Shown here: piece after piece, positions 5,123-61,006 of the stretch
Position numbering within the stretch: position 1 is the first letter of the stretch
Layout: every line of letters begins with the position of its first letter
Assembly: GCF_030384885.1 (NCBI RefSeq)
Contig: NZ_CP128613.1
Direction: 5' to 3' (one strand)
From: Escherichia coli
GTDB taxonomy: Bacteria; Pseudomonadota; Gammaproteobacteria; Enterobacterales; Enterobacteriaceae
DNA length: 64,000 nt
Position numbers and translations under genes: made by a program
The notes under the pieces: generated by a model
Told to the model about the DNA's origin: nothing
The model's input: only the letters and a program-made list of their open reading frames with translations
Database searches by the model: none

Positions 5123-5407
5123 TCAGGGCAAGCCGAAGGTAGCTTTTTTTATTTCATAATCCTGTAGATATTCTTCCAGCGGCTTTGCCGTTCCCAGCGA
5201 ATGAATTTCACCACTGTCTTTATCAATAATAAAAGGTGCGTTACCAGCTAAGCGCGCGGCCTCATCACCAGTTTCGAGAAATTCTCGTGCTTCGAAACAG
5301 AAATACCAGCCCTGGCTAAAGCGTCCATGTAGAGTAATGACGACGGCGAGATCTGCATCATCAAGGTAATGGTTCGCTTTCGCGAATGCTTCCTGATAAT
5401 TAATCAT
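5123..5407 (-). CDS. yrhB: small heat-stable protein YrhB
   Basis: 94-aa ORF (MINYQEAFAKANHYLDD...) matching my recollection of YrhB. Confidence 0.8.
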   Translation of the reverse strand: MINYQEAFAKANHYLDDADLAVVITLHGRFSQGWYFCFEAREFLETGDEAARLAGNAPFIIDKDSGEIHSLGTAKPLEEYLQDYEIKKATFGLP

Positions 5408-5518
5408 AATGATTCTGGATTTTCCGATGGGGCAGTTAGGTCATGCTTTTTTTCAAGCGCAACATATCCAACAAAGCCTTAATAAAATATTGTAATTTAC
5501 AATAAGTGTTAATGATGT

Positions 5519-23131: not shown

Positions 23132-24649
23132 ATGGAAAGAATAATGCAAAACAGAAAATGGATTTTGACCTCGCTGATAATGACTTTTTTCGGCATCCCC
23201 ATACTGGCGCAATTTTTGGCAGCGGTTATTGCCATGCTGGGGGCCGGGCTTGCCGCTATTCTTGAGGCTTGCAATTTACTCTTTACGCCAACAATTTATC
23301 TTCTACTCAACGTCTTTATGCTGACGCTGGGGGCGATAATCCTATTTTTCTCTGGTCGCGTGTGGGCCGGTGATAGCGCACCAGAAAACAGAGAAATAGC
23401 CGTCTGGCGGCAATGCTTTTTTCTTTTACCTGCACTGTTAACTCTGGTTGGCTGGATAATCACGCTACATCTGGCAGATTATCAATTTCGCCAAATGGGA
23501 GCAGGTTGGTTGGCAGAGCTTATGCTCCCCTGGCTGGGAGTTTTGTTAGTCTCATTAGTCGGAGGTGAGTTCTGGTGGATAGTCATTATACCCGTTGGTG
23601 CGCATATTAGTTTTTCGCTGGGGTATGGCTGGCCGACCAGATATCCTTTAACCGGCACGTACGGGTTACGTTGCCGTAATTCCCTCCTGTTTATCCTTCT
23701 CATGCTTGGTTTTATCGCTGGTTATCAGGCTTATTTATATAAACAGATTAATCCCGGCGTCGGTGTGCGTGAAAATATTGATACCTGGGCCTGGCGACCC
23801 GATAAACTCAATAATCAACTGACGCCACTGCGTGGTAAACCGCAAATTCAGTTTACACAAAACTGGCCGCGACTCGATGGTGCTACGGCGGCGTACCCAA
23901 TTTATGCTTCTGCCTTTTATGCGTTGAGCGTTATACCGGAAGATTTCCACACATGGGAATATCTGGAGAACTCTCGTACCCCCGATGCATATAACAGGAT
24001 TGTTAAAGGTGATGCCGATATTATTTTTGTGGCGCAACCTTCCGGTGGGCAGAAAAAACGTGCAGAGGAATCGGGCGTCACTTTGAACTACACTCCTTTC
24101 GCCCGTGAAGCATTCGTTTTCATCGTCAATGCGGATAACCCGGTTAATTCCCTGACTGACCAACAGGTGCGTGACATCTTCAGTGGCGCAATTACCAACT
24201 GGCGTACTGTTGGCGGTAACGATCAGGAGATCCAGACCTGGCAACGCCCGGAAGACTCTGGCAGCCAGACAGTGATGCAATCGCAGGTCATGAAAAATGT
24301 CCGCATGATCTCGCCGCAGGAAACCGAAGTGGCAAGCATGATGGAGGGAATGATTAAAGTTGTTGCCGAATACCGTAATACAAACAACTCAATAGGCTAC
24401 ACCTTCCGCTATTACGCAACACAAATGAATGCCGATAAAAATATAAAACTGCTAGCTATTAACGGTATTGCACCGACTGCGGAAAATATTCGTAACGGCA
24501 AATATCCATATATCGTCGATGCCTTTATGGTAACGCGGGAAAATACTACGTCAGAAACACAAAAACTGGTCGAATGGTTTTTAACGCCGCAGGGGCAGAG
24601 TCTGGTGGAAGATGTGGGTTATGTACCGTTGCATACAACAATGAAATAA
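23132..24649 (+). CDS. islet 1 gene 1: polytopic membrane domain fused to a PstS-like (phosphate-binding-protein fold) periplasmic domain
   Basis: 505-aa ORF; residues about 1-200 form several hydrophobic helices; the C-terminal part shows PstS-like motifs (AAYPIYASAF; QRPEDSGSQTVM, compare PstS RADGSGTS; SIGYTFRYYA). Function not assigned. Confidence 0.7.
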   Translation: MERIMQNRKWILTSLIMTFFGIPILAQFLAAVIAMLGAGLAAILEACNLLFTPTIYLLLNVFMLTLGAIILFFSGRVWAGDSAPENREIAVWRQCFFLLPALLTLVGWIITLHLADYQFRQMGAGWLAELMLPWLGVLLVSLVGGEFWWIVIIPVGAHISFSLGYGWPTRYPLTGTYGLRCRNSLLFILLMLGFIAGYQAYLYKQINPGVGVRENIDTWAWRPDKLNNQLTPLRGKPQIQFTQNWPRLDGATAAYPIYASAFYALSVIPEDFHTWEYLENSRTPDAYNRIVKGDADIIFVAQPSGGQKKRAEESGVTLNYTPFAREAFVFIVNADNPVNSLTDQQVRDIFSGAITNWRTVGGNDQEIQTWQRPEDSGSQTVMQSQVMKNVRMISPQETEVASMMEGMIKVVAEYRNTNNSIGYTFRYYATQMNADKNIKLLAINGIAPTAENIRNGKYPYIVDAFMVTRENTTSETQKLVEWFLTPQGQSLVEDVGYVPLHTTMK

Positions 24650-24674
24650 CTTTTGAGAGAACGGAATCAGCGCG

Positions 24675-25667
24675 ATGAATAAATTCATAGGCGTTTTACT
24701 GCTAGGTGCGGTTTTACTGGCGGGATGTGTCGACCGGGAAGGCTACTATAACAGCGTCAGGGAAGAAGACAGCCATGGACTGACGACTCTGCGGGGGCAA
24801 CCTGAATTACGTTACAACGATGATTGGTCAAGATGGCCGAGAGTATACGGCGCTACAGCCTTATACCCGCTGTATGCCTCCGCGTATTATGAATTAGTAC
24901 CCGAGCCAAAAGATAAGGATCGAACCTCGCTGGCCTGGCAGGCGTATGGTTTGCAACAAACCCGAACAGCTGAAGCCTACGATAGTCTGATCAAGGGTAC
25001 CGCGACGGTTATTTTTGTTGCACAACCGTCGGAAGGACAGAAAAAACGTGCAGAAGAAGCAGGCGTTAAACTGAAATATACCGCGTTTGCCCGCGAAGCC
25101 TTTGTCTTTATCGTTGATATCAAAAACCCGGTTAATTCACTTAGCGAACAGCAGGTCAAAGACATTTTTAGCGGTAAAGTGAGTCGCTGGAATAAAGTGG
25201 GCGGCGGTGACGAAAGTATAAAAGTCTGGCAGCGGCCAGAAGATTCTGGAAGCCAAACGGTTATGAAGGGACTGGTTATGCAAGATACTCCAATGCTGCC
25301 AGCCAAAAAATCCACTGTTATCGATCTTATGGGCGGTTTAATTACCGAAGTCGCCGACTACCAAAACACAACATCTTCCATTGGATACACCTTCCACTAT
25401 TACGTCACACGTATGAATGACAATATGCTCAAAATGCGCAAACAGATCAAACTGCTAGCTATAACTGGCATTGCGCCTACAGAGGAAAATATCCGTAACG
25501 GCACTTATCCGTACATAATTGATGCTTATATGGTGACGCACGAAACCCCTGCGCTGGAAACGCAGAAATTCGTCGACTGGTTTTTAAGCCCGCAGGGACA
25601 GCAATTGGTAGAGGATGTGGGGTATGTGCCGATTCATGACGCATCATACGAATCATCAGTGCAATAA
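24675..25667 (+). CDS. islet 1 gene 2: lipoprotein with PstS-like substrate-binding domain
   Basis: 330 aa; lipobox LLAGC; same motifs as the gene-1 C-terminal domain (ALYPLYASAYY; QRPEDSGSQTVM; SIGYTFHYY). Confidence 0.72.
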   Translation: MNKFIGVLLLGAVLLAGCVDREGYYNSVREEDSHGLTTLRGQPELRYNDDWSRWPRVYGATALYPLYASAYYELVPEPKDKDRTSLAWQAYGLQQTRTAEAYDSLIKGTATVIFVAQPSEGQKKRAEEAGVKLKYTAFAREAFVFIVDIKNPVNSLSEQQVKDIFSGKVSRWNKVGGGDESIKVWQRPEDSGSQTVMKGLVMQDTPMLPAKKSTVIDLMGGLITEVADYQNTTSSIGYTFHYYVTRMNDNMLKMRKQIKLLAITGIAPTEENIRNGTYPYIIDAYMVTHETPALETQKFVDWFLSPQGQQLVEDVGYVPIHDASYESSVQ

Positions 25668-26269
25668 TGATGAATAAAATCAGACTTTATATTCCTCCGT
25701 TAATTCTTGGTTTTGTTATTGTGCCGTTGTTGGTGTGGCCGACGGTGGTTGCGCTGGCTGCTTCTGTTATCACGCTGAGTTTTCTGGGAGAGATACTGTT
25801 CTCTATCCCGCTCATGATCAGGCGTATTTCACTTCTGCAATTACAACTATGGTTATCGGCTGAATATGCGCTTTTCTTCTGTGCAATGGTGGGCGTTGGT
25901 TGGCAATTTGCGCGCAGAACGCCACCTGAATTGAAAAGCAGACTGCATTGTTGGCTGGTATTTGCACCAGTTTATTTCTGGTTGCTCCTGTGGAATATCA
26001 TTTTCTATGTCGCGCCAGCGAATATTGCGTTGCTGGAGAATATGCGCAGTTTCTTTCTGACAGTTGTCTGGCTCCCACTGAATTTTTCGCCATTTTGGTC
26101 TCAACCGTGGATTGACTTTGTCGGTCCAATAAGCGCACAGCTTGGTTTTGCGTTGGGATATTATTGCCAGTGGCGTAGCAAAAATAGAAGCCAGATACGG
26201 AAGTGGAGTGAGTGGGGAACGTGCCTGAGTTTTGTTACGTTGGGTATGATGGCGTGGGCTTTGCGGTAA
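25667..26269 (+). CDS. islet 1 gene 3: small polytopic membrane protein, paralog of the gene-1 N-terminal domain
   Basis: 200 aa, 4-6 hydrophobic segments; PISAQLGFALGYYCQW resembles PVGAHISFSLGYGW in gene 1; start ATG overlaps the gene-2 stop (TAATG). Confidence 0.65.
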   Translation: MMNKIRLYIPPLILGFVIVPLLVWPTVVALAASVITLSFLGEILFSIPLMIRRISLLQLQLWLSAEYALFFCAMVGVGWQFARRTPPELKSRLHCWLVFAPVYFWLLLWNIIFYVAPANIALLENMRSFFLTVVWLPLNFSPFWSQPWIDFVGPISAQLGFALGYYCQWRSKNRSQIRKWSEWGTCLSFVTLGMMAWALR

Positions 26270-26376
26270 TTCCCTGACTCAAAAAGTAGGTCAGATTGTT
26301 GACAAAGTGCGCTTTGTTCATGCCGGATGCGACATGAACGTCTTATTGGCCTACAAGACCATGCAAATTGTAGTGG

Positions 26377-27626
<1,250 letters not shown>

Positions 27627-33181: not shown

Positions 33182-34408
33182 ATGAATTACGAATTACTGA
33201 CCACTGAAAATGCCCCGGTAAAAATGTGGACCAAAGGCGTGCCGGTAGAGGCCGATGCGCGTCAGCAACTTATTAATACGGCGAAGATGCCGTTTATTTT
33301 CAAACATATTGCGGTAATGCCGGATGTACACCTGGGTAAAGGTTCCACCATTGGTAGCGTGATCCCAACCAAAGGAGCGATTATTCCGGCGGCGGTGGGG
33401 GTAGATATCGGTTGTGGAATGAACGCACTGCGAACTGCGTTAACGGCGGCTGACCTGCCTGAAAACCTGGCGGAGCTGCGTCAGGCGATTGAAACTGCCG
33501 TGCCGCACGGACGTTCCAATAATCGTAGCCGTCGTGATAAAGGCGCATGGGAGCATCCGCCTGTTAACGTCGATGCTAAATGGGCCGAGCTGGAAGCTGG
33601 TTATCAGTGGTTAACGCAAAAATATCCGCGTTTCCTTAACACTAATAACTATAAACATCTGGGAACGCTGGGAACGGGTAACCACTTTATTGAAATCTGC
33701 CTTGATGAGTCGGACCAGGTGTGGATTATGCTGCACTCCGGTTCACGCGGAATTGGTAATGCCATCGGGACTTACTTTATCGATCTGGCACAAAAAGAGA
33801 TGCAGGAAACGCTTGAAACGTTGCCATCGCGTGACCTGGCGTACTTTATGGAAGGTACGGAATACTTTGATGATTACCTGAAAGCGGTGGCCTGGGCGCA
33901 GCTTTTTGCCAGCCTTAACCGCGATGCGATGATGGAAAATGTGGTAACGGCGTTGCAGAGCGTTACGCAGAAAACGGTAAGACAGCCACAAACGCTGGCG
34001 ATGGAAGAGATCAACTGTCACCACAACTATGTGCAAAAAGAACAGCACTTTGGCGAAGAGATCTATGTGACGCGTAAAGGCGCGGTGTCTGCGCGTGCTG
34101 GTCAATATGGAATTATTCCCGGTTCGATGGGGGCGAAAAGCTTTATTGTCCGTGGGCTGGGAAATGAAGAGTCGTTCTGTTCGTGCAGCCACGGTGCCGG
34201 GCGGGTAATGAGCCGTACTAAAGCGAAAAAACTGTTCAGCGTGGAAGATCAAATTCGTGCCACCGCGCATGTGGAATGCCGTAAAGATGCCGAAGTGATC
34301 GACGAAATCCCGATGGCGTATAAAGATATCGACGCGGTGATGGCGGCACAAAGCGATCTGGTGGAAGTTATCTACACCCTGCGTCAGGTGGTGTGTGTAA
34401 AAGGATAA
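33182..34408 (+). CDS. rtcB: RNA-splicing ligase RtcB
   Basis: 408 aa; conserved RtcB metal/GTP-binding His/Cys motifs. Confidence 0.95.
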   Translation: MNYELLTTENAPVKMWTKGVPVEADARQQLINTAKMPFIFKHIAVMPDVHLGKGSTIGSVIPTKGAIIPAAVGVDIGCGMNALRTALTAADLPENLAELRQAIETAVPHGRSNNRSRRDKGAWEHPPVNVDAKWAELEAGYQWLTQKYPRFLNTNNYKHLGTLGTGNHFIEICLDESDQVWIMLHSGSRGIGNAIGTYFIDLAQKEMQETLETLPSRDLAYFMEGTEYFDDYLKAVAWAQLFASLNRDAMMENVVTALQSVTQKTVRQPQTLAMEEINCHHNYVQKEQHFGEEIYVTRKGAVSARAGQYGIIPGSMGAKSFIVRGLGNEESFCSCSHGAGRVMSRTKAKKLFSVEDQIRATAHVECRKDAEVIDEIPMAYKDIDAVMAAQSDLVEVIYTLRQVVCVKG

Positions 34409-54624: not shown

Positions 54625-56693
<2,069 letters not shown>

Positions 56694-56695
56694 AT

Positions 56696-56731
56696 AAAAC
56701 GGGAGGAGAAGGAGCCTCCTGTTTTATTTTG
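56696..56731 (+). terminator. envZ rho-independent terminator
   Basis: aaaacgggagg-agaaggag-cctcctgtttt followed by atttt. Confidence 0.7.
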
Positions 56732-56856
56732 TGCACTCAGTATCTACTGAATGAATACGGTCTCAGACATCGGCACCATACGAAGTAAAGTGTACTGTAA
56801 GCTGATTGCAGGCTAGCGTATCCTGATTAGTAAAAGCACACTAAAGGAATAGCTTG

Positions 56857-58140
56857 ATGCAACTTACCAACGAAGAACAAGTACAGATTGCTCGTATAAA
56901 AGAAAAAATCCCACGCATTGCCGCACTGGATCCTGAATGTAAGTTATTCGGTTCTGAAGGTTGGAAATATCAATGGCCGAAGCCTGCCAGCGAGGCGGAA
57001 ATAGCTTCCTGGGAGAAAAAACATAGCGTCACTTTGCCACGGGAATATCGAATTTTTCTTCGCTATATCGCTAATGGCGGTCCGGCACATGCCTACGGTC
57101 TTGAATCTTTAGGCGGTACAGATATTTATGGCGATATAACAAAAGAAAGCCCTGTACCGCTTTATATGACGCAGCAGGATGTTGATGTGTTGAATGCTGG
57201 CCGTACAGAAGATGATGAAGAATATAGTTTTTTTGACGGCGCATTGACCATTCTCACCCTGGGATGTACTTATGATATTTGCCTGGTGGTGACGGGGCAG
57301 TATCGCGGAAGGTTAATGCTGACTGATGGTGATGAAGATTATCCGTTTGATTTTATATATGATAAAAATTTCCTCAACTGGTATGAACGCTGGCTGGACG
57401 ATTTTATTGCTGGCATGAGTATGAAGGGTTTCGATAGAAGTTTGCCAGGAACGCAAATTCAACTGCGTGAGTGGTTTTTAACTGAGAAAATCCCGGATTT
57501 ACGTAGATCCATTTTATTCTCGCTATGCCGTTTTCCACAGATAGAACCCGAAACTTTTGCCCTTTGGGAACATGTTTGCCGTACAGAGAATGATAAAGAA
57601 TTGTGTGAAGAGGCATTCATAAGATTACGCCAAAAAAAAGTTTCTTGTGCTGCAGATATTTTTCGACTCTATTTTGCAATGTCAGATGAATTACGTGATA
57701 TTGCTATTAAAGATCTCCGTTTTGCCTGTAGAGATAGTGTGGTGAATATTGAGGATTATATTCATTCACTGTTAATAATAATGCCTGAACTTGACGATGA
57801 CACTCTATCCTCAGCTGTCTTTGCTATACGAGAAACAGAGTATAATAAATATGATACTTTTCTGCCGCTTCTCGAACGTATCACTGATGACCGTCAGCAA
57901 ACATTATTGTGGGCGATGAGTAAGGCGCCTGATTTCAATGAAAGCCGAGGATTCGTTGAGTTGGTATTACCGCTTTTTGCATCATCAAAGATGGAGAATG
58001 TAAGGAAGGCTATTTTGTTGCTCATTGAAGTTAAAGATAATCGTATTCCACCATTGGTTGATGAAGCTGCAACTCGTTTCCCTGAACTGACCATTTTACG
58101 AGAAAACTACTATCTCAGGACGTGGGGACATAAGCCATAA
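56857..58140 (+). CDS. islet 2 ORF A: SUKH (SMI1/KNR4)-like N-terminal domain fused to a C-terminal alpha-helical repeat (HEAT/ARM-like) domain
   Basis: ATG at 56857 with AAAGGA Shine-Dalgarno 8 nt upstream; N-terminal motif SWEKKHSVTLPREYRIFLRYIANGG and YDKNFLNWYERWLDDFI typical of SMI1/KNR4; C-terminal half has repeated helix pairs. Confidence 0.7.
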   Translation: MQLTNEEQVQIARIKEKIPRIAALDPECKLFGSEGWKYQWPKPASEAEIASWEKKHSVTLPREYRIFLRYIANGGPAHAYGLESLGGTDIYGDITKESPVPLYMTQQDVDVLNAGRTEDDEEYSFFDGALTILTLGCTYDICLVVTGQYRGRLMLTDGDEDYPFDFIYDKNFLNWYERWLDDFIAGMSMKGFDRSLPGTQIQLREWFLTEKIPDLRRSILFSLCRFPQIEPETFALWEHVCRTENDKELCEEAFIRLRQKKVSCAADIFRLYFAMSDELRDIAIKDLRFACRDSVVNIEDYIHSLLIIMPELDDDTLSSAVFAIRETEYNKYDTFLPLLERITDDRQQTLLWAMSKAPDFNESRGFVELVLPLFASSKMENVRKAILLLIEVKDNRIPPLVDEAATRFPELTILRENYYLRTWGHKP

Positions 58141-58177
58141 ATTAATGGTTCAGAAATGATCTAACGCGGAGAAAAAT

Positions 58178-58708
58178 ATGATCAGGGAACATATTCAGCA
58201 AGCGATAAATAATAGGTTAGCATTTGATGGCCCATTCAATGTTGTTCCTGAACCTGCAAGCACTGCGTTTGATAGCCGGATCCCGACATTGAAAAACGGT
58301 GTCTGGCAGAAGGCCAGCCCTATGTTGCAGGCGCGTTTTGCACATTGTGGACGTTGGTTAAGCGCTACACATGGAAGCTGGCTAAGTATAAGTGACATGG
58401 AAACGCTTTGGCAGGAACACATAGAAGATACGTTTCTTGATGAAATCAAAATGAATGCTGTAGCTTCAAGTGATAATTGGGATAACCATGCCTTGGGACT
58501 ATTTCGTTCTCATCGCCTGTCACTTTTTGCCGGTAGTGATTACAGTTATGAAATGGTTTTTCTCCTTTGGCTAGATAGTACCGTTGAGCCAGAGGTCTGG
58601 GTTTATGACTGCAATGGGGAATCACGTTATAAAGATCTTAATGATTACCTGAATGCATATATTAATGATGACGTAAGCGCCTGTGAGCGCTCTTGGCGAG
58701 TAGAATGA
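58178..58708 (+). CDS. islet 2 ORF B: hypothetical 176-aa cytoplasmic protein
   Basis: ATG with GGAG Shine-Dalgarno; no confident family assignment by eye; the C-terminal EPEVWVYDCNGESRYKDLNDYLNAYIN loosely resembles the C-terminal signature of SUKH-type immunity proteins. Confidence 0.55.
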   Translation: MIREHIQQAINNRLAFDGPFNVVPEPASTAFDSRIPTLKNGVWQKASPMLQARFAHCGRWLSATHGSWLSISDMETLWQEHIEDTFLDEIKMNAVASSDNWDNHALGLFRSHRLSLFAGSDYSYEMVFLLWLDSTVEPEVWVYDCNGESRYKDLNDYLNAYINDDVSACERSWRVE

Positions 58709-59331
58709 ATAGCCCCCCTTGCCCCTTTGATCCACAAACCGCACATTACCTCGGCACAGTGCAAATCCACTACACCTCAACCACCTTCAACGCTGCCGTT
58801 AAGCATTATACCTATCACATTAAAAAGCGTTTTAAAGGGGTTAAATGGGGAATTGGTACCGCTGGCTTATTGGCTATATTGCCCATGATCCCACAATGGT
58901 TGAAACCTTCTCATGACTTTAAACTCAACGCAATCAGTACGTTAATTCTTCTATTAATGTTGCCACTCCTCTTATCAATGTTCCTGTTAATCAGCAGAAG
59001 AATTAACGATTTTAAGTCAAAAACAAAGCAAGTTACTTTTACGAAACCCGTGCGTTATGCGTTTTATTTCGAGGGGATTGTTTTTTATGAATCTCATCAG
59101 CAGGGCATACTTCGCTGGGAAGATTTTTATGGCATTGAGTATGAAGAAGATTATTTGTGGCTTTTTCTGCATTTACCGAAGAGTTTTCCCAGAGAAGCGA
59201 CGAAAGCGTTTTGCGATATTTTCATTCCCACCAGTGCGATAAAAGCGCAGCCTGAACTGGATACGTTTTTTCGTGAAACACGCCACTCGCTGGATTATCT
59301 GTTTGTCCCGTTTAATTCTGACAGAAAATAA
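58705..59331 (+). CDS. islet 2 ORF C: small membrane protein, possibly YcxB-like (two TM helices plus a PH-like domain)
   Basis: ATG at 58705 overlaps the ORF B stop (ATGA); two hydrophobic helices (GIGTAGLLAILPMIPQWL; ISTLILLLMLPLLLSMFLLI) followed by a soluble domain. Confidence 0.6.
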   Translation: MNSPPCPFDPQTAHYLGTVQIHYTSTTFNAAVKHYTYHIKKRFKGVKWGIGTAGLLAILPMIPQWLKPSHDFKLNAISTLILLLMLPLLLSMFLLISRRINDFKSKTKQVTFTKPVRYAFYFEGIVFYESHQQGILRWEDFYGIEYEEDYLWLFLHLPKSFPREATKAFCDIFIPTSAIKAQPELDTFFRETRHSLDYLFVPFNSDRK

Positions 59332-59334
59332 CAT

Positions 59335-59362
59335 ATCCCCCGTATCTGGTGAAACGGGGGAT
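59335..59362 (-). terminator. pck rho-independent terminator (also ends islet 2)
   Basis: atcccccgt-atctggtgaa-acgggggat perfect stem; T-rich on the minus strand after the hairpin. Confidence 0.7.
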
Positions 59363-59383
59363 TTCGTCGCTTAACTTATCGGA

Positions 59384-61006
59384 TTACAGTTTTGGACCAG
59401 CCGCTACCAGCGCGGCACCCGCTGGGGTGTCGGTGTATTTATCGAAGTTGTCGATAAACAGTTTCGCCAGAGTTTCGGCTTTTTCCTGCCACTGTTCAGG
59501 AGAAGCGTAGGTGTTACGCGGATCGAGGATCTTAGTGTCTACGCCCGGCAGTTCAGTCGGGATTGCCAGGTTAAACATCGGCAAAGTGAAGGTTTCTGCG
59601 TTATCCAGCGAACCGTTGAGGATGGCGTCGATAATGGCGCGGGTATCTTTAATGGAGATACGTTTGCCAGTACCGTTCCAGCCAGTGTTAACCAGATATG
59701 CCTGCGCACCCGCCGCTTGCATACGTTTCACCAGCACTTCTGCGTACTGAGTTGGGTGCAGCGACAGGAACGCCGCGCCGAAGCAAGCGGAGAAGGTTGG
59801 CGTCGGTTCGGTGATGCCACGTTCAGTACCGGCCAGTTTGGCGGTGAAGCCAGAGAGGAAGTGGTACTGAGTTTGATCGGCAGTCAGGCGAGAAACCGGC
59901 GGCAGCACACCAAAGGCGTCTGCGGTCAGGAAGATAACTTTAGTTGCGTGGCCCGCTTTGGAAACCGGTTTAACGATGTTATCGATGTGATAGATCGGAT
60001 AAGAAACGCGGGTGTTCTCGGTTTTTGAACCATCGTCAAAATCGATAGTGCCATCTTCACGTACGGTGACGTTTTCCAGCAGCGCATCGCGACGGATAGC
60101 GTTGTAGATTTCAGGTTCCGCTTCTTTCGACAGCTTGATGGTTTTCGCGTAGCAGCCGCCTTCGAAGTTAAACACGCCGTCGTCATCCCAGCCGTGCTCG
60201 TCATCGCCAATCAGGCGACGTTTCGGGTCGGTGGAAAGGGTGGTTTTACCGGTGCCGGAAAGGCCAAAGAACACCGCAACATCGCCTTTCTCGCCAACGT
60301 TGGCGGAGCAGTGCATAGAAGCGATGCCTTTCAGCGGCAGCAGGTAGTTCATCATCGAGAACATCCCTTTCTTCATTTCGCCGCCGTACCAGGTACCGCC
60401 AATCAACTGCATACGCTCGGTCAGGTTAAACGCCACGAAGTTTTCAGAGTTCAGCCCCTGCTCTTTCCACTGGGGGTTAGTGCATTTTGCGCCGTTCATA
60501 ACGATAAAGTCAGGTTTAAAACCAGCCAGCTCTTCATCGCTCGGGCGAATAAACATGTTTTTGACAAAATGCGCCTGCCAGGCCACTTCGGTGATGAAAC
60601 GGACGGAAAGACGCGTGTCTGGGTTCGCACCACAGAAAGCGTCGACAACGAACAGACGTTTGCCAGAAAGCTGTTTGGTCACCAGGCCCTTCAGATGCTG
60701 CCAGGTTTCCGGAGAGAGAGGTTTGTTGTCGTTCTTACCTTTGCCTTTATCAGCCCACCAGAAGGTATCGCGAGTGGTATCGTCACGGACGATATACTTA
60801 TCTTTTGGTGAGCGACCGGTGAATATACCGGTATCGACGGCAACGGCACCCAGATTAGTTAACACCCCGCGCTCATAACCTGTCAGGCTCGGATCGAGCT
60901 CTTCCTGATACAGCAGGTCGTAGCTTGGGTTGTAAACGATATCATGTACGTCACTGATACCATAAGCCTCGAGTTCTTGCGGGGTCAAACCATTGTTAAC
61001 GCGCAT
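59384..61006 (-). CDS. pck: phosphoenolpyruvate carboxykinase (ATP)
   Basis: Start set at [17 protein letters not shown]; kinase-1a motif GLSGTGKTT; 540 aa. Confidence 0.96.

Follow-up and report, generated by a model that had tools for sequence, protein, structure and literature searches.

What does a rare group of three genes do between envZ and pckA, two genes whose stop codons lie only 75 bp apart at the empty site of Escherichia coli K-12? We asked this of a window of 64,000 nucleotides (the whole stretch of DNA analyzed here) from E. coli contig NZ_CP128613.1, assembly GCF_030384885.1, in which the gap extends over 2,692 bp (56693-59384, counted from stop codon to stop codon) and holds three open reading frames (ORFs), which we call A, B, and C. 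Our answer, to which we give a probability of about 0.65, is that this islet is a small polyimmunity locus, that is, a locus of orphan immunity genes, which probably shields the cell from toxins injected by rival bacteria. Read in this way, it is a further small example of a locus type that has already been described, and reveals no new kind of system.

A first-pass annotation, made from the letters alone, had described an AT-rich islet between envZ and pck with three same-strand ORFs, the last two translationally coupled, in a gap that it gave as shorter than 100 bp in K-12. This description proved accurate. The G+C content is 41.7% over the gap, and in 300-bp windows it is 0.36-0.46 within the islet versus 0.52-0.59 in envZ and pckA; the ATG of ORF C overlaps the stop codon of ORF B (ATGA, a 4-bp overlap). 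With gaps of 37 bp and -4 bp between the frames, and hairpins at the two ends only, ORFs A, B, and C probably form a single transcript; a consensus scan upstream of ORF A yielded no convincing promoter on the plus strand. Besides the three genes, the islet contains no coding-strand ORF of at least 60 amino acids (aa), no match to a toxin domain, and no match in an Rfam scan; none of the three proteins has a significant NCBIfam match. As also noted in the annotation, there is no integrase, insertion sequence, or meaningful flanking direct repeat at the islet, and we found no recombinase from greB to yhgE. The pairing of an immunity-type domain with a membrane protein, which it had proposed, was borne out as well, in the form of a SUKH domain and a YcxB-family protein.

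The two SUKH proteins and their relatives

ORF B has no sequence match in Pfam, NCBIfam, or PDB sequences, SUKH profiles included. Its predicted model is confident (predicted local distance difference test, pLDDT, 90.7) and has the alpha+beta fold of SUKH proteins, and its fold matches include the immunity proteins YobK, Tdi1, and Atu4351. We assign ORF B to SUKH solely by fold. The family is small (34 clusters), with members across Enterobacterales, Burkholderiales, Caulobacter, and metagenomic lineages.

The genomic position of its homologues connects ORF B to a family of secreted toxins. In Pectobacterium parmentieri, a homologue with 56% identity begins 19 bp after a 1,423-aa PAAR-Rhs gene, which stands behind genes for Hcp, VgrG, and DcrB/Eag. 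The DNA encoding the C-terminal domain of this Rhs protein finds a 71% match in 70 complete E. coli genomes (~1.3%). E. coli 05-3629 has genes for VgrG, a DcrB-related protein, and Rhs (1,503 aa), followed 12 bp on by a 176-aa gene whose product is 54% identical to ORF B over the full length (E 9e-70), and the Rhs toxin tails of E. coli 05-3629 and Pectobacterium are clearly homologous. The accessions in E. coli 05-3629 are WP_032141712.1 for Rhs and WP_023155453.1 for the 176-aa protein. ORF B is a full-length homologue of the gene at the immunity position, 12-19 bp after Rhs, in these VgrG-Eag(DcrB)-Rhs loci; unlike them, the window has no neighboring Rhs gene. The toxin domain at the Rhs C terminus comprises ~125 residues, with the tail ...GHTPDVGWGG..., and has no match in Pfam, NCBIfam, or PDB sequences. 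Speculatively, it may be an Ntox15-like DNase, as hinted by its HTPD (HxxD-like) motif and by the Tdi1 and Atu4351 fold matches of ORF B. Further ORF B homologues (57% identity over 82% of the query) occur in arrays with Imm19, Imm21, Imm32, Imm17, and SUKH genes beside a tyrosine recombinase, and in Corticimicrobacter a homologue adjoins a SUKH_6 gene.

In the window, ORF B is preceded by ORF A, and no Rhs or CdiA gene lies immediately upstream, where a cognate toxin-immunity pair would have its toxin gene. None of the toxin carriers listed (69 of the 70 E. coli genomes) holds the islet, a count that has to be read with a chance overlap of only ~0.2 genomes, with one carrier left unlisted, and with a DNA search that would miss divergent toxins of the same family. 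Because there is no upstream toxin gene and none of the 69 listed carriers holds the islet, we call ORF B an orphan with respect to this toxin; on position and fold, we regard it as a probable orphan homologue of the immunity gene for a type VI secretion system (T6SS) Rhs toxin.

ORF A carries the SUKH signature in its sequence: residues 43-169 match the Pfam profiles SMI1_KNR4 (E 2.7e-6) and SUKH_6 (E 3.4e-5), the former profile matches 19 of the 20 members of the ORF A family at E<=1e-3, and the RefSeq product name is SMI1/KNR4 family protein. HEAT_2 has no match in ORF A itself; in the C-terminal half of its relatives, it matches 2/20 at E<=1e-3 and 7/20 at E<=0.1, with a best value of 4.7e-9. 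We considered whether this half corresponds to the 142-aa HEAT module of other variants of the site and rejected it (hhalign probability 0.4%, no detectable homology). From its domain content, we read ORF A as a likely polyimmunity-type protein. A 208-aa protein on the Serratia plasmid pAM01, with 54% identity to the SUKH part of ORF A only, sits in an orphan array of the polymorphic-toxin/immunity type, with genes for Ntox17, Imm31, DUF637 (CdiA-type), DUF596, and a deaminase. Relatives of ORF A over its full length, at 39-62% identity, stand alone amid housekeeping genes, both in Klebsiella aerogenes and at a different position in E. coli. The latter gene, found in other E. coli, encodes a 424-aa paralogue of ORF A with 39% identity and lies between DinG-type helicase and RidA-type genes (locus L025, 7001-8275; L numbers denote comparison loci throughout), a second E. 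coli site for a solitary SUKH gene.

A multi-allelic site and the origin of ORF C

Of 5,426 complete E. coli genomes, 18 (0.33%) carry the islet, with the order A-B-C, at 99-100% identity and invariably between envZ and pckA. All three frames are intact in these carriers, whose hosts include humans, cattle, dogs, pigs, and goats. The accessory operon that the annotation saw at a core intergenic position is borne out, and it is rare: the genes are far from being present in essentially all E. coli, nor do all three show confident homology to housekeeping proteins. Other genomes of the same set hold different DNA at this position. A pair consisting of a RelE/ParE toxin and a NadS antitoxin, on the opposite strand, occupies it in ~1,330 (24.5%), and a single 346-aa HEAT-YcxB gene in one, strain A30; the rest were sampled rather than typed one by one, and those sampled are K-12-like, i.e., empty. 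Draft genomes of other E. coli and of Shigella show yet another arrangement, a 142-aa HEAT gene followed by B' (66% identical to ORF B) and C' (~60% identical to ORF C). The gap between envZ and pckA is thus a multi-allelic hotspot, holding immunity genes, a toxin-antitoxin pair, or nothing, and not a one-off insertion point. A distant blastn search with the islet DNA against plasmid and phage collections gave no match, and we found nothing specific in the literature on the accessions of the islet proteins or on this site.

In ORF C, a transmembrane (TM) hairpin precedes a PH-like beta-sandwich that carries a C-terminal helix. This is the architecture of the YcxB family (Pfam PF14317, bacterial PH-like membrane proteins), and all structural neighbors of ORF C are annotated as YcxB-like. 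The match of the Pfam profile to ORF C is marginal (E 0.56-0.65); among 15 relatives, five reach E<=0.1, and the lowest value is 4e-3. To our knowledge, no function is established for the YcxB family. The subfamily to which ORF C belongs is tiny (15 matches in 1.84 billion representatives) and, unlike the family at large, is tied to the envZ-pckA site and to the HEAT module. RefSeq places the start of ORF C later, at a GTG; the 208-aa start adopted here (58705) is backed by the motif FDPQTAHYLG, conserved in relatives upstream of that GTG, and by UniProt A0A1Q6B7U4.

The other alleles suggest where this protein came from. E. coli A30 and Escherichia sp. E4742 have one 346-aa gene that joins a 145-residue HEAT-like domain to an ORF C-type module. 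At the same site, several Salmonella enterica serovars have a single 365-aa gene with the modules in the reverse order, YcxB first and HEAT second (L027, 7001-8098). In another S. enterica (L019, 4348-6618), the A30-type gene is split exactly between FDPQTAH and YLGTVQ by a 1,225-bp insert. Besides a CdiI_5 gene and a 91-aa fragment that may be the tail of a toxin, the insert holds a second, truncated copy of CdiI_5, which now provides the start of the YcxB module; as to a target-site duplication, the insertion junction shows only a 2-bp overlap. Homology of the window to A30 starts at ~58726, with ORFs A and B standing in place of the HEAT part. By these sequence comparisons, ORF C is the C-terminal module remaining from the HEAT-YcxB gene of this site. 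A narrow alignment search for distant relatives of ORF C gave two loci, in Superficieibacter, where the relative is a solitary gene after secF, and in Snodgrassella.

The three genes are not inherited together as one system: relatives of ORF A are solitary in Klebsiella and elsewhere in E. coli, relatives of ORF B follow Rhs toxins or lie in arrays, and ORF C is a remnant of a HEAT-YcxB gene. Because relatives of A and B, and distant relatives of C, occur without the other genes, the islet is a mosaic and not a three-part machine.

We quantified synonymous divergence (dS) and the ratio of nonsynonymous to synonymous divergence (dN/dS) against E. albertii, which has the same arrangement but an ORF A in pieces of 295 aa and 132/133 aa, apparently through a frameshift, with B and C intact (L010, 6681-7963; L011, 5406-6688). 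The dS values of the three genes (Table 1) are near those of the flanks, which suggests that the islet dates back roughly to the species split. Together with the several allelic forms that the site has in Escherichia and Salmonella, this speaks for an old polymorphism lost by most E. coli and not for a recent insertion; the word "inserted" in the annotation is an oversimplification. When the flanks were compared with K-12 in sliding windows, identity was 93-100% everywhere and showed no gradient, which is uninformative on recent import. The dN/dS values of the islet genes, also given as a range of 0.22-0.48, suggest that the frames are maintained while the proteins change fast, as is typical of immunity genes.

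The proposed polyimmunity reading and its alternatives

Polyimmunity loci have been described as immunity genes that share one orientation, follow each other at short distances, are not interrupted by a toxin, and vary from strain to strain (Zhang, Aravind and co-workers 2012, PMC3482391). The same study lists HEAT repeats as an immunity class, treats a SUKH domain fused to another immunity-type domain as a polyimmunity protein, and reports an adjacent recombinase for several of the loci, though not for all. The islet resembles these loci in its tandem, same-strand immunity-type genes at very short distances, in the lack of a toxin gene between them, in its strain-variable content, and in the dominance of SUKH, and ORF A would resemble the polyimmunity proteins in joining SUKH to an immunity-type repeat domain (HEAT) in one polypeptide. 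The islet differs from these loci in having no adjacent recombinase, in its fixed core-genome site, and in a YcxB membrane gene that falls outside the described immunity families; with two immunity genes and three domains, it is also smaller than the "extended" polyimmunity loci, which have four or more.

A second likeness is to the acquired interbacterial defense (AID) and recombinase-associated AID (rAID) clusters of gut Bacteroidales, which likewise consist of orphan immunity genes that have diverged from their cognate counterparts of the T6SS, with the toxin missing from the genome. Relatives of ORF B themselves occur in arrays of this type beside a tyrosine recombinase. The islet, by contrast, is found in E. 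coli, has 2-3 genes instead of a dozen or more, and lacks the recombinase, the repeats, and the mobile-element context, so that it is not the orphan array with tyrosine recombinase on a mobile element that defines such clusters. Orphan SUKH immunity proteins with 35-62% identity to their cognates have been reported to protect (PMC12247911), and ORF B, at 54%, lies inside this range; by analogy, it is plausible that such an identity is sufficient for protection.

A small polyimmunity locus is the simplest reading of an islet whose modules move independently of one another, whose middle position accepts unrelated immunity genes, and which encodes neither a toxin nor an enzyme. ORFs A and B would be cytoplasmic immunity proteins belonging to the SUKH superfamily, made without an adjacent toxin gene, and each would attach to the toxin domain at the C terminus of an effector delivered by contact, and block it; such an effector would be of the T6SS Rhs or contact-dependent inhibition (CDI) type. 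The likely target of ORF B would be the ...GHTPDVGWGG... toxin domain of the VgrG-Eag-Rhs effector found in Pectobacterium and in ~1.3% of complete E. coli genomes. ORF C would be an inner-membrane protein that A and B probably do not need. The locus would have been assembled next to, and partly in place of, the HEAT-YcxB gene, with immunity cassettes repeatedly placed just upstream of the YcxB module. The comparisons show the domains and folds, the place of ORF B homologues next to toxins in two genera and within immunity arrays, the lack of a toxin in the islet, the separate occurrence of the modules, and the variants of the site; toxin neutralization by A and B, cross-protection at 54% identity, and co-transcription are inferred.

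Besides the limits of the toxin search, several points weigh against this reading. An identity of 54% to the cognate immunity protein may fall short for binding, protection being a prediction only. ORF A has no known toxin partner, and its full-length relatives stand alone between housekeeping genes. SUKH domains also serve in roles other than immunity (Syd, Smi1, FBXO3). ORF C is not accounted for, and the fusion of HEAT to YcxB in both orders could signal a working partnership. Finally, the frameshift of ORF A in E. albertii and the rarity of the islet are both compatible with decay.

This last point leads to the alternative that survives best, although we consider it unlikely: the islet as a neutral relic, an old and decaying polymorphism whose genes are no longer useful in E. 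coli. Its presence in only 0.33% of complete genomes, the broken ORF A of E. albertii, the dN/dS values 30-100 times those of the flanks, and the origin of ORF C as a piece split off from a longer gene would all follow from decay, and a dS close to that of the flanks makes the islet old rather than newly selected. Yet dN/dS is well under 1 in all three genes, the three frames are intact in 18 genomes from varied hosts at 99-100% identity, and the ORF C module has retained a start codon after independent rearrangements (the split of the window/L010 type, the L008 split, and the Salmonella CdiI_5 insertion).

Slightly less probable still is a single cooperative system at the membrane, in which HEAT and YcxB act jointly, with the SUKH domains as adaptors or sensors. 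The translational coupling of B and C is compatible with it, as are the fusion of HEAT and YcxB in E. coli A30 and Escherichia sp. E4742, their fusion in the opposite order in S. enterica, and, that reversed gene apart, the presence of a HEAT-type domain upstream of YcxB in all variants observed. However, no homology was detected between the C-terminal half of ORF A and the 142-aa HEAT module, relatives of ORF A and distant relatives of ORF C are found alone, and in Salmonella the middle gene is replaced by unrelated CdiI_5 immunity genes; fusion in either order is, moreover, also seen among published polyimmunity proteins made of independent domains (PMC3482391). A related and similarly speculative idea concerns the HEAT-YcxB gene on its own, as an undescribed membrane-anchored component of interbacterial defense. 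It arises because the modules are fused in both orders, their boundary has taken unrelated immunity cassettes at least twice, and the YcxB start codon was kept each time; the protein may be a YcxB-type immunity factor against membrane-acting toxins, or a platform with adjacent soluble immunity proteins.

The annotation had placed the islet among toxin/immunity or anti-phage modules. The toxin/immunity setting holds, in an immunity-only form with no toxin present, while nothing found here speaks for the anti-phage part. In a three-gene anti-phage system, ORF C would be a membrane-disrupting effector of abortive infection, restrained or triggered by the SUKH proteins, as might suit a compact accessory operon at a variable site where 24.5% of genomes hold a RelE/ParE-NadS pair, and ORF C does have a weak PADLOC match (PycTM, E 0.021) over its TM region. 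We judge this improbable: no gene has a significant match in PADLOC (PADLOC-DB 2.0) or any in PHROGs, none of the three proteins has an enzymatic or nucleotide-sensing domain, A, B, and C are not found together outside Escherichia, the surroundings in which relatives of A and B lie are those of interbacterial toxin/immunity genes and not defense islands, and no match was found in phage genomes. Least probable of all, and by our estimate very much so, is a self-contained toxin-antidote module with ORF C as a membrane toxin neutralized by A and/or B, for although ORF C is a membrane protein of small size whose translation is coupled to that of the immunity-type gene before it, at a site where many strains have a classical toxin-antitoxin pair, its module exists without a SUKH gene (fused to HEAT in A30 and Salmonella, solitary as a distant relative in Superficieibacter), the widespread YcxB-family proteins are not known as toxins, and ORF B has a clear external toxin partner. 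All four alternatives are less well supported than the polyimmunity reading.

Boundaries, other features, and implications

In the window, the islet lies between ompR-envZ on the plus strand and pckA on the minus strand, which is followed by yhgE (Table 1). On the left, the envZ terminator hairpin is common to all variants of the site, including the empty one (alignments of K-12, the toxin-antitoxin variant TA, A30, L008, L010, and L019), and their sequences part directly after its T-run. On the right, the annotation had taken the hairpin after ORF C for the terminator of pck. K-12 has only the single hairpin beside envZ, and the right-hand one is kept in all HEAT/YcxB variants. Because it is absent from K-12, it belongs to the islet, and the foreign DNA extends to ~59381, a few bases from the pckA stop. 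This hairpin is probably a bidirectional terminator serving both ORF C and pckA.

Table 1. Features of the envZ-pckA gap and of comparison loci, with divergence from E. albertii
Feature	Location	Strand	Description	dS	dN/dS
envZ		+	left flank	0.43	0.007
envZ terminator hairpin	56692..56729	none	left boundary; inverted repeat I2, 15-nt arms, 93% complementary		
ORF A	56857..58140	+	427 aa; N-terminal SUKH-1 (SMI1/KNR4) domain, C-terminal half scoring as HEAT repeats in relatives	0.34	0.22
ORF B	58178..58708	+	176 aa; SUKH-fold protein of an un-named family; starts 37 bp past ORF A	0.20	0.39
ORF C	58705..59331	+	208 aa; YcxB-family membrane protein, TM hairpin and PH-like C-terminal domain	0.37	0.37
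Islet hairpin	59335..59362	none	directly 3' of ORF C, 22 bp short of the pckA stop; inverted repeat I5, 12-nt arms, 92% complementary		
pckA		-	right flank	0.36	0.003
RelE/ParE-NadS pair at envZ-pckA	L003 1625-2297 (E. coli WS1933D)	opposite			
VgrG-Eag-Rhs effector and SUKH-fold immunity gene	L036 1847-6901 (E. coli 05-3629)				
VgrG-Eag-Rhs effector and SUKH-fold immunity gene	L005 2710-7525 (Pectobacterium parmentieri)				

Three other places in the window deserve mention. The stretch between glgP and glpD (23142-27555) looks like another accessory insertion; it contains two genes of the PstS family, one hypothetical gene, and an IS3 transposase whose frameshift is programmed. The identical RefSeq record annotates rtcB (33183-34408) as a pseudogene with a frameshift. 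Between ggt and yhhY (5124-5408) there is a yrhB gene; the yrhA/yrhB region of K-12 probably also carries a SUKH-type gene, and this may be another small site of immunity type.

The most useful by-product of this analysis is a testable toxin-immunity pairing within E. coli, between the Rhs toxin and ORF B. If our reading of the islet is true, it would provide a first functional lead for the SUKH-fold family of ORF B, which sequence profiles miss. It would also give E. coli a concrete example of orphan immunity, with ORF B directed against an Rhs toxin deployed by T6SS in ~1.3% of complete genomes, and as such would bear on the competition between strains in the gut.

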